DNA of 64,000 nt from Frondihabitans sucicola (GTDB taxonomy: Bacteria; Actinomycetota; Actinomycetes; Actinomycetales; Microbacteriaceae). This document shows, in pieces, positions 3,141 through 64,000 of this stretch. Position numbers and translations under genes: made by a program. The first letter of the stretch is position 1, and every line of letters starts with the position of its first letter. Below the pieces are notes generated by a model. The model made no database searches. It had not been told where the DNA came from and saw only the letters and a list, made by a program, of their open reading frames with translations. The stretch is taken from NCBI RefSeq assembly GCF_030296615.1, contig NZ_AP027732.1, positions 2,545,042 through 2,609,041 of the forward strand, given 5' to 3'.

Positions 3141-3758
3141 TCAGCGGACCTCGGCCTTGAATGCGACGTCGAAGCCGGCGCCGTTGTTCGCCAGGCCGAC
3201 GAGCAGGATGCCCGCCCACTCGAGCGCGTGGGCCATGCCGAGTCCGCCGGCGTCGCGGGGCTGGAGGTTCAGGCTCTCGAGGAAGGCCGCGAAGCCCGCC
3301 TTGGCCTCGGTGCCGTCTCCGGCGAAGAAGACGTCCAGCGGGGCGTCGCCCGCGATGACACCGCCGAAGATCGTGTTGAAGGCCTTGATCACGTGTGTGT
3401 CCGCAGGGGAGACGGCGGCGATCCGGTGGGCGATCGAGTCGCCCGGCGTGGTCACGATTCCGCTGGCGTCGGCGTTGAACGGGTTGCTGATGTCGACGAG
3501 GGTCTTGCCTGCCAGCGCTTCGCCGAAATGCTGAACGGCCTCGACCGCACCCTGGTACAGGACGGCGACGAAGACGATGTCGCCTGCGGGGTCGGCGCCG
3601 AACGTGCCGACTGTCGCTCCGTGGCCGATCTGGGCGGCGAGATCCTGCGCTGCGGTGGCGTTCCGGCTCAGGATCTCGACGGTGTGGCCGTGCTCGGCAG
3701 CGCGGGTTCCGATGGCGCGGGCCATGTTGCCCGAGCCGATGATGCTGATGGTGGTCAT
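3141..3758 (-). CDS. NADP-dependent F420 reductase-like / NAD(P)-binding oxidoreductase (NpdG family)
   Basis: MTTISIIGSGNMARAIGTRAAEHGHTVEIL Rossmann N-terminus; 205 aa; tightly linked upstream of the SDR. Confidence 0.65.
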   Translation of the reverse strand: MTTISIIGSGNMARAIGTRAAEHGHTVEILSRNATAAQDLAAQIGHGATVGTFGADPAGDIVFVAVLYQGAVEAVQHFGEALAGKTLVDISNPFNADASGIVTTPGDSIAHRIAAVSPADTHVIKAFNTIFGGVIAGDAPLDVFFAGDGTEAKAGFAAFLESLNLQPRDAGGLGMAHALEWAGILLVGLANNGAGFDVAFKAEVR

Positions 3759-59670: not shown

Positions 59671-60073
59671 AAGGGCGGGGGTGCCGTGTGAGCTCGTGGT
59701 CAGGTGGAGGATGCGCGCGGTGCGGAGTGCCCGACGATCAGGCGTCGGGGGTGGTGTCGCGGTGGCGCCACCAGGCGGTCTCCGCGTGGTGGGCTGAGGT
59801 GTACACCCCGAGGTTCCGCCGTTCCGACTCGATCAGCGACCAGCTGGTCAGCTTGAAGCCGCGCGCGAAGGCCTCGACGAGCGCCTCGGGAGGTGAGTCG
59901 TCGCTGGCGCGCACCAGCCAGGTCAGAGGTCCGGTCTCGTCGAGCATCCTGCCACTGTAAGACCCCGGCGGGCGCTCCCGGTGCCGGCGTCTTGCGGCGG
60001 CGTCTCGCGGCGGCGTCTTGCGGCGTCCTACGGCGGGCTCTTGGGGCGGAGGACGGCCTGCGACCCGACGTGC

Positions 60074-61944: not shown

Positions 61945-63231
61945 TTACTCGGCACCGAGCGGACGACCCGACACGTCGGCATCGGGTCGCGCGTTGCGCG
62001 ACACCCGTTTGGTCGACCCGCCGAGGAGACTCGCGGACGTGACGCTGCCGGGCCCGAAGCGGGCCCGCAGGGCGTCCATCGTCGTCTCGGCCTCGCGCCA
62101 GTCGGCGTCGTCGTCCCACAGCCCGACGGCACCGGAGGATTCGCCGGCGAAGGTCAGCTGCTCCATCCGTACGCCGACGAGCCGGATCGGAGTGAGGACC
62201 TTCCCGGACGTCTCGTAGACGCCTCGGACCTCTTCGAAGATGCGGCGCCCGAGGTCGGTCGGCTCGCCCAGGGTCTTGGAGCGGGTGATCGTCTCGAAAT
62301 CACCGAAGCGGAGCTTGAGGACGACGGTGCGGCCGGTGGCGCCGGCGGCCCGCAGGCGGCGCCCGACCTGGTCGCTGAGCCGGAAGAGCTCGCGGCGGAT
62401 GCGGTCGGCGTCTCGGACGTCGGTCTCGAAGGTGACCTCGTGCCCGACGCTCTTCTCGTCGGCCCGAGTGGTCACCTCGCGAGGGTCGCGGCCCCAGGCG
62501 AGCGCGTGGATCTTGGCGCCGCCGGCTGCGCCGACAGCTCGCTGCAGCGTGTCGAGCGGTGTGTTCGCAACGTCTCCGATGGTGTTCAGACCGTAACCGC
62601 GCAGGGTCTCTTCTGTGCGACCGCCGACGCCCCAGAGATTGCCGATCGGGCGCGGGTGCAGGAACGCGAGGGTCGACGCCTCGGGGACGATGAGAAGACC
62701 GTCGGGTTTCGCGACGCTGGACGCCAGCTTCGCGACGAATTTGGTCGAGGCCGCACCCACGCTGCAGTGGAGCCCGGTCTCGGCGTGCACTCGCCGCCGC
62801 AGCGCCGTCGCAATCTCGAACGGGGATCCGTACAGGCGGCGCGACCCGCTGACATCGAGGAAGGCTTCGTCGATGCCGAGGCGCTCGACGAGCGGGGTGA
62901 CGTCGTCGAACATCGACATGACGAGGGACGAGTAGTGCTGGTAGCGCTCGAAGTGAGGCTCGAGGACGATCGCCTGGGGGCATCGCCGCAGCGCCACGGC
63001 CATGGGCATGGCGGAGTTGACGCCGAATTTCCGGGCCTCGTAGGTGGCGGCGGTGACGACCGACCGCTGCGACCGGTGCCCCACGACCACGGGGAGGCCC
63101 CGGAGGTCGGGACGCTCGAGGAGCTCGACCGAGGCGAAGAAGGCGTCCATGTCGACGTGCAGGATGTTGGCCGTCGCGTCAGCGGTCGGCGTCGTCGTGA
63201 CCAGGCGCCCGCTGCCGTCCTGCTTGCTCAC
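61945..63231 (-). CDS. dinB: DNA polymerase IV
   Basis: ILHVDMDAFFASVELLERPDLRGLPVVVG ... Y-family palm/fingers/little-finger; start uncertain (GTG ~63231). Confidence 0.8.
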   Translation of the reverse strand: MSKQDGSGRLVTTTPTADATANILHVDMDAFFASVELLERPDLRGLPVVVGHRSQRSVVTAATYEARKFGVNSAMPMAVALRRCPQAIVLEPHFERYQHYSSLVMSMFDDVTPLVERLGIDEAFLDVSGSRRLYGSPFEIATALRRRVHAETGLHCSVGAASTKFVAKLASSVAKPDGLLIVPEASTLAFLHPRPIGNLWGVGGRTEETLRGYGLNTIGDVANTPLDTLQRAVGAAGGAKIHALAWGRDPREVTTRADEKSVGHEVTFETDVRDADRIRRELFRLSDQVGRRLRAAGATGRTVVLKLRFGDFETITRSKTLGEPTDLGRRIFEEVRGVYETSGKVLTPIRLVGVRMEQLTFAGESSGAVGLWDDDADWREAETTMDALRARFGPGSVTSASLLGGSTKRVSRNARPDADVSGRPLGAE

Positions 63232-63306
63232 GCGTTGGCTCGCTCTCGTACGTACAGACTCATGGGCCCCCTCTGAGACATGTTCGCACGCCCCACCGAC
63301 ACTGAG

Positions 63307-63362
63307 CCCCCGCCCGCCCCTCCCGCCCCGCCCGCCCCGCCCGCCCCGCCCGCCCCGCCCGC
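63307..63362. repeat. tandem 9-bp repeat (GCCCCGCCC) x ~6
   Basis: seen directly; upstream of dinB. Confidence 0.7.
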
Positions 63363-63451
63363 CCCGCCCGCCGAAAATCGAAGGGGATTCCTCCGTCCGC
63401 GACGATGTACGTGGGATCGAAGGTTGTTCCGCCGAAAATCCCCTTCGATTT

Positions 63452-63520
63452 CGGGAGGGAGGGAGGGAGGCAGGACGGGAGGGAGGGAGGGAGGGAAGGA
63501 AGGAGGGAGGGAGGCGGGCA
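63452..63520. repeat. (GGGA)n purine tract, ~15 units with few interruptions (G-quadruplex-prone)
   Basis: seen directly. Confidence 0.7.
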
Positions 63521-63533
63521 GGGTGCGACAGAG

Positions 63534-64000
63534 CTACGAGGAGACCGGCCCCAGCCACCGCGCGGCGACGGTGGCGTGCGCGGAGTCGCTCGACGAGGGA
63601 TGAAAGCGCCCGGCCATCACGTCTCGAGCGAGCCGCCCCAGTTCGGAGGAGTTCTGGAACGACGCCCCGCCGGCGACCGTGACCGCGCCGTCCACCACCC
63701 GTGCCGCCGTGGACGTCGCACGCAGCTTCAACGCCACGAGCCGAGGGAACCAGTCCGCTCCGTGGTCGACGAGGTCGTCGAGATCCTGCGCCAGGGTCTC
63801 GATCTGGGGCTCGAGGCCGTCGAGGTCGATCGCGGCGTCGGCCACGCGCCAGCGCACCACCGGGTCGTCGGAGATCGGCTGCCCGGTCCGTCGGGACGTC
63901 TTGCCGAGCGATGCGGCGACGGCCAGGTCGAGCGCGCGGCGTGCGATGCCGCGGTAGACGGCCGCGATCAGCGTCTCGAAGGCGGCGAAGATCCCGAACA
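63534..64000 (-). CDS. acyl-CoA dehydrogenase family protein, C-terminal part (5' end beyond window)
   Basis: ...VTVAGGASFQNSSELGRLARDVMAGRFHP resembles the ACAD C-terminal helical domain; ORF open to the window edge. Confidence 0.4.
   Translation of the reverse strand, partial: FGIFAAFETLIAAVYRGIARRALDLAVAASLGKTSRRTGQPISDDPVVRWRVADAAIDLDGLEPQIETLAQDLDDLVDHGADWFPRLVALKLRATSTAARVVDGAVTVAGGASFQNSSELGRLARDVMAGRFHPSSSDSAHATVAARWLGPVSS

Follow-up and report, generated by a model that had tools for sequence, protein, structure and literature searches.

In Frondihabitans sucicola, the 302-bp spacer between an acyl-CoA-dehydrogenase-like gene and dinB, which codes for DNA polymerase IV, holds a dense block of repeats (contig NZ_AP027732.1; the window is the whole 64,000-nucleotide stretch analyzed here, and the spacer lies close to its end). 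We consider it likely that this block is a diverged copy of a dispersed, non-coding palindromic repeat with expanded tails, and that it has no dedicated role for dinB. The assignment to the repeat family, together with the geometry of the dinB promoter and start codon, is held with high confidence, and the lack of a dedicated regulatory role is judged somewhat more probable than its presence; its place beside dinB is probably fortuitous and not part of a design for regulating the gene. A covariance model (R1), built from an alignment (A1) of 44 copies of the family with 67% mean column identity and with the window copy excluded, matches the core of the block over its full length, scoring 45.7 bits on the minus strand (E=2.8e-10), as against 33.6 bits on the plus strand. 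Moreover, a PafBC-type promoter separates the repeats from the conserved dinB start codon, so that the element should be neither translated nor part of the dinB mRNA made from that promoter.

Organization of the repeat block

As stated in the preliminary description of this DNA, the block lies upstream of dinB and combines a 9-bp tandem repeat, a (GGGA)n tract and two inverted 15-nt segments. Tandem Repeats Finder resolves the first into 7.2 copies of CCCCGCCCG at 63308-63372 (96% matches, score 123), where about six had been counted, and the second into 15.5 copies at 63453-63514 (87% matches), close to the 15 or so units first given, with a higher-order period of ~24 nt that extends to 63522. 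The inverted pair is exact, with AAATCGAAGGGGATT at 63375-63389 (plus strand) and its reverse complement at 63437-63451, and the GCCGAAAAT that was said to precede each segment is accounted for by a direct 12-mer, CCGCCGAAAATC, at 63368 and 63429. None of the 9-bp repeat, the (GGGA)n tract, the inverted pair and the 12-mer recurs in the other 63.7 kb of the window, and the observed counts of the array motifs were reached by 0 of 100 dinucleotide shuffles. The parts of the element, as we read it, are:

63452..63523, no strand assigned: putative expanded 5' tail, (TCCC)n in gene sense and (GGGA)n on the plus strand, ~15.5 units, quadruplex-prone on the plus strand
63365..63461, minus strand: palindromic repeat core, with arms at 63375-63389 and 63437-63451; both CCGCCGAAAATC 12-mers belong to it
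63308..63372, no strand assigned: putative expanded 3' tail, 7.2 copies of GGGCGGGGC in gene sense and of CCCCGCCCG on the plus strand, quadruplex-prone on the minus strand

In gene sense (minus strand), ~10 nt separate the upstream stop codon from (TCCC)n, after which come the hairpin, the (GGGCGGGGC)n array, 6 nt, the promoter, a leader of ~40 nt and the GTG codon of dinB. The hairpin has arms of 15-19 bp (CGAAATCGAAGGGGATT...AATCCCCTTCGATTT in this copy) and an interior of ~47 nt with a central GATC at ~63414-63417. The two arrays are 70-75% complementary to each other; together with the hairpin they make up an imperfect palindrome of ~230 nt, in which both strands have quadruplex potential. 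Neither this complementarity, nor the reading of the central hairpin as a copy of a dispersed family and of the arrays as its expanded C- and G-rich flanks, was part of the preliminary description. No canonical promoter was found in the repeat block.

The G-quadruplex propensity first suggested for the region is borne out by prediction, and it extends to both strands. Four or more runs of at least three G with loops of 1-7 nt, and a G4Hunter score of at least 1.5, were taken as the criterion; G4Hunter gives -2.76 over 63287-63379 (G-rich minus strand) and +1.96 over 63446-63529 (plus strand), and the arrays are the two longest quadruplex-prone tracts of the window, with three non-overlapping G3+N1-7 motifs each. 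Folded as RNA, the stretch 63232-63540 is predicted to form a single long imperfect hairpin (-176.5 kcal/mol, z = -3.9), to which the core hairpin alone compares with -45.4 kcal/mol (z = -3.5); as single-stranded DNA, the same stretch gives about -69 kcal/mol for either strand. In a quadruplex-aware RNA model each tail alone forms three tandem quadruplexes (-91.7 kcal/mol for 63452-63523 and -94.2 kcal/mol for 63308-63372), and for the full sequence the hairpin and quadruplex folds are similar in energy. These models allow the block to adopt a single long hairpin or cruciform, or else quadruplexes in tandem on either of the strands.

A dispersed family of palindromic repeats

The family was recognized with a palindromic pattern that covers the versions found in the window and in an unclassified Frondihabitans (L005), run over one reference genome per species, where ~2 chance matches are estimated. 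At least 49 loci matched; among the matches listed, 37 are in Frondihabitans sp. Leaf304, 8 are in three Terrimesophilobacter assemblies and others fall in one actinobacterial assembly, which proved to have two copies, in addition to a few probable chance palindromes. R1 brings the count for Leaf304 to at least 40, within ~300 kb of sequence and at many unrelated loci of this one genome, and that for the three Terrimesophilobacter assemblies to 10; it finds no copy in ~80 kb from five other Frondihabitans loci, Frondihabitans sp. PhB188 and Frigoribacterium. The copies are ~85-100 nt long, with inverted arms of ~19 nt (consensus CCGAATTYGAAGGAGA...TCTCCTTCRAATTCGG), a spacer of ~45 nt and no conserved open reading frame. 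The aligned interior includes CGATCC and TCGTCG, and the shared GACCCCGCCCGATCCGCATGA..TCGTCG gives the element a polarity.

The arms covary across four lineage variants: six pairs are changed on both sides, 92.6% of the cells are paired and none of 500 shuffles reached as high a value. Within Leaf304, the variable T/C position of the arm varies independently on the two arms, and is unpaired in 10 of the 44 copies; therefore, the sequence of the arms is conserved and not only their pairing. Most Frondihabitans copies have a central GATC, often within CGATCG or GGATCC, at columns 44-48 of A1, as do the window copy and the copy in the metagenome contig L090; it could be a recognition site for a protein or a methylase at the tip of the hairpin. 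The ends of the element come in two alternative forms, CCGAATT and TGCAAATT (columns 8-10 and 93-97 of A1; for example, L017, L019, L024, L025 and L032), and TGCA is found at the 5' end of about one quarter of the copies, at the 3' end of three and at both ends of none.

A scan of metagenomes with arms of the F. sucicola type returned mostly a coincidental, gene-internal palindrome, and L090 is the only true member among its matches. In this contig the element lies beside flbD, belongs to the same GGGG-arm subtype as the window copy, scores 45.7 bits and has CCTCCTCCCGCCC in its 5' flank. The coincidental palindrome is an inverted pair, TCGAAGGGGAT...ATCCCCTTCGA, spaced by 83 nt, which many contigs from soil metagenomes have within a conserved protein-coding gene (L062-L097; for instance, L062 5557-5639); it was rejected as a family member, being a false positive of the arm-based scan. 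The gene (translation ...FSKGITGK...NKN(A/T)IPFD...) we take to code for serine hydroxymethyltransferase. No credible Rfam match was obtained for the window region (E up to 10), for 13 related loci (gathering threshold) or for two Leaf304 copies (E up to 1). An origin from a plasmid or a phage was rejected, as no plasmid matched the element and the viral search gave one weak match (22 bits). The literature searched does not describe such a repeat family for Frondihabitans or Microbacteriaceae. The family, found in some Microbacteriaceae genomes, is apparently undescribed.

The placement of the copies was assessed with crude third-position GC gene calls, on which all of the context statistics rest. 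No overlap with a called gene is seen for 43 of 47 copies, which typically lie 15-80 nt from a stop codon. Gene contexts are tandem for 22 copies, convergent for 11 and divergent for one, and strand orientation shows no bias (13 versus 9). Divergent spacers make up 28 of 122 intergenic regions (23%), yet only 1 of the 26 that bear an element (p=0.008). The suggestion raised by a few copies, among them L029 and L054, that the element inserts into pre-existing terminator hairpins, was rejected as a general rule, as the flanks are complementary at 7.87 of 24 positions versus 7.48 +/- 0.30, and their duplex energy is -19.2 versus -18.6 +/- 0.7 kcal/mol.

Related loci were collected via DinB homologues: three from sequencing-run assemblies (L001, L003 and L004), Frondihabitans sp. 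762G35 (L002), the unclassified Frondihabitans (L005) and F. cladoniiphilus (L008). The order of the genes is kept in all six, and the acyl-CoA-dehydrogenase-like gene precedes dinB in these as well as in Frigoribacterium (L060). In L001-L004 and L008, 70-122 bp separate the two genes, and in Frigoribacterium 36 bp; these spacers contain none of the repeats found in the window, even in L001, the closest relative, with 90% DinB identity. The repeats are thus an insertion or expansion that is peculiar to the F. sucicola lineage. In L005-7 and in Leaf304 (L051), the spacer is 184 bp long and contains a hairpin (CCGAATTTGAAGGAGAAAC, 43 nt, GTTTCTCCTTCAAATTCGG) with the position and orientation of that in the window; relative to the window, the changes in the arms are compensated and the interior is similar. 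In a neighbor-joining tree of DinB (a single gene, unbootstrapped), F. sucicola groups with L001 and L003, which have no element, and L005 and Leaf304 group near the base; the element is also absent from the PhB188 and Frigoribacterium loci. The pattern would fit two separate hits on the spacer, or one old insertion with three or more losses, and neither orientation nor distance to the stop codon strongly favors one over the other. In PhB188 (L058 8845-9900), a gene for an alpha/beta-hydrolase on the opposite strand lies between dinB and the gene in the position of the acyl-CoA dehydrogenase, breaking the adjacency; the latter gene has no Pfam match on record.

How did the window copy acquire its arrays? 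If nothing but the interior is used to orient each copy, the 30 nt next to the element are C-skewed on the 5' side (-0.10) and G-skewed on the 3' side (+0.16; paired p=2.5e-5), and the skew is weaker farther from the element. Eleven other copies have a tail that is strong by G4Hunter on one side (for example, G9 in L014, GGCGGGCGGGGGCGGCGGGG in L016 and CCCCCCGCCGCCCCCGCC in L036). Because of this oriented skew and of the G4Hunter-strong tails of other copies, we infer that the arrays are the native C and G tails of the family, expanded by replication slippage, plausibly favored by stalling of the polymerase at the hairpin or at the runs of G. The two sides differ in period (4 nt on one and 9 nt on the other, besides the higher-order unit of ~24 nt), which argues for independent growth of each side and not for copying from arm to arm. 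Several Leaf304 copies are directly flanked by 2-5 copies of tandem repeats of 4-30 nt, smaller analogues of the arrays of the window (L030 2802-2861; L032 4155-4196 and 4276-4349; L034 6987-7022 and 7101-7153; L035 234-268; L022 ~1420-1480).

Several observations weigh against this interpretation of the block. Part of the arm sequence was fixed by the palindromic pattern with which the family was found, and R1 detects no second copy in the 64-kb window of F. sucicola. That two non-sister lineages have a hairpin in this position could reflect selection of the site, or of the hairpin there. The complementarity of the arrays, the periods of which differ (4 and 9), is not explained by simple copying of a palindrome, and the excess of tandem repeats beside family copies (6 of 20 versus 11 of 73 regions, p=0.12-0.19; coverage 15.7% versus 3.5%) is suggestive only. 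No terminator-like site, defined as a GC-rich stem followed by a U-run, was found in 62900-64000, so that the block does not conform to a canonical intrinsic terminator. Lastly, the fetched loci show ordinary metabolic and transport genes, and no transposase or RAYT gene, between closely spaced copies, the ~400 kb of flanking sequence yielded no RAYT gene, and no direct repeat that would represent a target-site duplication is evident in the listed flanks. The ends of the element are themselves palindromic (CCGAATT...AATTCGG), and would therefore hide any short target-site duplication. Since neither a transposase or RAYT gene nor a target-site duplication was found, mobility is suggested only by the distribution of the copies.

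The dinB promoter and alternative explanations

The remaining features of this end of the window are:

63534..64000, minus strand: 3' part of the acyl-CoA-dehydrogenase-like gene, stop codon 63534-63536; continues beyond the end of the window
63280..63301, minus strand: PafBC-type (RecA-NDp) dinB promoter, TGTCGG-TGGGGCGTGC-GAACAT, with the -26 element at 63301-63296
61945..63231, minus strand: dinB (DNA polymerase IV), 428 amino acids, GTG start (Pfam, NCBIfam)

Promoters of the PafBC type combine a -26 element with a normal -10 element, and have no -35 element (PMC8635444, PMC6789036). The sequence upstream of dinB, a DNA-repair gene, fits the published PafBC/RecA-NDp consensus, tGTCgg(N10)tA(N3)T (PMC8635444), and we assign it to this type by sequence; the only zero-mismatch match to TGTCGGTG-N9-A-N3-T in the 64-kb window is the dinB promoter at 63301-63280. 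In all six related loci, TGTCGG-N10-GANNAT is conserved at the same distance from the start codon of dinB, ~45-70 nt before it (with G instead of T after TGTCGG in L008). The match to described PafBC/RecA-NDp promoters is conserved across Frondihabitans (PMC8635444, PMC6789036, PMC11804915). Transcription of dinB is predicted to start near 63273. The GTG codon at 63231 opens the reading VSKQDGSG, and the six related loci start with M/V-SKQDGSG (ATG or GTG) at the aligned position.

In Frondihabitans sp. 762G35 (CP014619; L002 4937-4973), the -26 region of the dinB promoter is tandemly duplicated, with GTCGGTGGCTCGTG present twice, 23 nt apart; a -10-like GAGCAT follows the downstream copy alone. 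The -10 region of L001 overlaps GCGAACATGTCTTCGA (3325-3340), which is near the actinobacterial LexA box, TCGAAC-N4-GTTCGA; the LexA-like version in the window, GCGAACATGTCTCAGA at 63287-63272 (minus strand), is degenerate. On this comparison, dinB may be under dual control by LexA and PafBC in some Frondihabitans, and not in F. sucicola.

The repeats have no stop codons and give rise to spurious long open reading frames at 63044-63682 (plus), 63280-63603 (plus) and 61945-63558 (minus), of 212, 107 and 537 amino acids, which have low-complexity tracts of PAPP, GGRE or GGR and can mislead gene callers. The last of these is open from a GTG codon at 63558 to the stop codon of dinB, and the preliminary description had considered that, if translation began there, the 9-bp repeat would encode a (GGR)n extension at the N-terminus of DinB. 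We regard this as having practically no chance of being correct: the start is conserved at 63231 and used by the annotated 428-amino acid protein of F. sucicola at NCBI, polymerase IV profiles begin at or downstream of it, relatives lack the region altogether and the extended frame would include the place where the preceding gene stops and cross the promoter.

The same geometry bears on the proposal that the arrays are a tunable quadruplex or repeat-length regulator of dinB, in which non-B DNA from -36 upward, or the length of the arrays, sets the level of the error-prone polymerase. Both arrays are strongly quadruplex-prone, the 9-mer array ends ~6 nt from the -26 element of the promoter, that is, at about -36, a hairpin occupies the same site in two Frondihabitans lineages and, among 45 family copies, the one in the window is alone in having quadruplex motifs on both flanks. 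Bacterial repeat-length switches place their repeats in the promoter spacer, the 5' untranslated region or the open reading frame. The arrays, however, lie upstream of the -26 element and therefore outside all three, L001 and four other Frondihabitans loci keep both the promoter and dinB without any repeats, and the hairpin family sits at the 3' ends of genes genome-wide, whatever the neighboring gene. This leaves such a regulator unlikely. The earlier suggestion that variable-length repeats modulate dinB expression is thus weakened: the repeats are upstream of the gene as described, but the promoter intervenes, and their position is atypical of repeat-length switches. An influence on dinB is conceivable, and could act only through DNA structure from -36 outward; it is not needed in those relatives that keep the promoter without the repeats. 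We give very little credence to a further possibility, in which the family is a self-extending module of non-B DNA, a hairpin with C and G tails that seed the growth of repeats, and its expanded form at dinB is a sensor in cis. Single-stranded DNA is a known activator of PafBC (PMC11804915). If replication or transcription stalled at the cruciform or quadruplex block, single strands would be exposed beside the PafBC promoter, and the expression of the translesion polymerase would be coupled locally to structured DNA that is hard to replicate, with the length of the arrays setting the sensitivity.

Nor does the conservation of the site in two lineages make it probable that the hairpin is a regulatory or terminator structure peculiar to this spacer and inherited vertically, to which the other copies are unrelated look-alikes. 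Site, orientation and a similar distance to the stop codon, with ~21-23 nt ahead of the C-rich tail or the arm, are indeed shared by F. sucicola and the L005/Leaf304 group. But R1 scores of 70-90 bits at no fewer than 40 other Leaf304 sites, with shared interior motifs, largely refute this view; moreover, the carriers are not sisters on the single-gene, unbootstrapped DinB tree, the intervening lineages, PhB188 and Frigoribacterium are without the hairpin and the GGGG-arm subtype is also found beside flbD in L090. It is thus a very improbable account. Even less probable, in our judgment, is a structured RNA, either a leader or attenuator of dinB or a small RNA gene. Although the predicted fold is very stable and the arms covary, Rfam holds no match, the PafBC promoter lies downstream of the block, the copies at the 3' ends of genes show no bias in orientation, and the independent T/C position points to conservation of sequence rather than of pairing.

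As to the genes themselves, three lie in the final 2 kb of the window and are read from the minus strand, namely, dinB, the acyl-CoA-dehydrogenase-like gene and a gene for a ResIII/DEAD-type helicase. The acyl-CoA-dehydrogenase-like gene codes for the C-terminal Pfam domains Acyl-CoA_dh_2 and Acyl-CoA_dh_1. DinB has the Pfam domains IMS, IMS_C and HHH, matches the NCBIfam DNA polymerase IV model at 400 bits and is 100% identical to the F. sucicola DNA polymerase IV of NCBI (P0001) across the full 428 amino acids. Just past the stop codon of the helicase gene (60074), at 59985-60048, there is a 13-nt tandem repeat, CGGCGTCTTGCGG, in 3.2 copies (periods of 23 and 26 can also be read), and thus another case of a short tandem repeat in intergenic DNA behind the end of a gene.

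Known repeat systems and possible roles

Among known elements, the family resembles REP/REPIN sequences, extragenic palindromes and inverted doublets that are reportedly mobilized by RAYT transposases. Its copies are extragenic, numerous and mostly located by the 3' ends of genes, and they have lineage-specific arm variants; each is an inverted doublet, with two conserved arms and a less conserved spacer, that would form a hairpin of ~80-100 nt. Unlike REP/REPIN sequences, the individual arms do not form clear palindromes, part of the interior is conserved, with its central GATC, and no RAYT gene came to light in the ~400 kb of flanks; to our knowledge, RAYT/REP systems have not been described in Microbacteriaceae. 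Bacterial miniature inverted-repeat transposable elements (MITEs), such as the Correia (CREE) elements of Neisseria, ERIC/IRU and RUP, insert near genes and can act as terminators, promoters or RNA-processing sites. The family is likewise non-coding and small (~100 nt), with terminal inverted repeats and dozens of copies, where MITEs number dozens to hundreds; in contrast to MITEs, it has no demonstrated target-site duplication and no parent insertion sequence with the same ends was found. By analogy, the placement of the family resembles that of REP/REPIN-, Correia- or ERIC-type elements, which suggests copies that are tolerated or useful behind genes and excluded from regions that hold only promoters.

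Hairpin terminators poor in U-tracts have been reported in high-GC Actinobacteria. Like intrinsic terminators, the family hairpin is found some 15-80 nt behind stop codons, frequently in convergent or tandem contexts and almost never in divergent ones; unlike them, its stem is A/T-rich at the base and has no U-run, and the consensus scan finds no terminator at the block in the window. The tails, for their part, recall promoter-proximal quadruplexes and contingency loci in their long runs of three to four G near a promoter and in their short-unit, slippage-prone tandem repeats. They differ from contingency loci in lying outside promoter elements, 5' untranslated region and open reading frame, and from promoter quadruplexes in that tracts on both strands flank a hairpin, so that the competing fold is a long hairpin or cruciform. 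We know of no described PafBC promoter with an abutting repeat array.

Taken as a diverged family copy with expanded tails, the element would be a passive or mildly useful structural module. The transcript of the upstream gene would carry a very stable, bidirectional hairpin (about -45 kcal/mol from the core alone, a stability that the tails would raise much further). Possibly, this hairpin terminates, stabilizes or insulates the upstream transcript, which would leave dinB to its own damage-inducible PafBC promoter; as there is no U-run and no canonical terminator call, the proposal draws on the position and the stability of the hairpin.

In any event, a patch of repeats that could have been taken for a regulator of dinB, or for an odd N-terminus of its product, is here reassigned to a family with a covariance model, a consensus and rules of placement. 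Families of this kind matter for the annotation of genomes, the quality of assemblies and the typing of strains, and as natural terminators or insulators. With its tails and their apparently runaway expansion, the copy in F. sucicola would be a natural example of a hairpin element that seeds quadruplex-prone repeats on both strands and, since it abuts the PafBC promoter of an error-prone polymerase, it offers a direct test bed for the effect of upstream non-B DNA at sigma-adaptation promoters.

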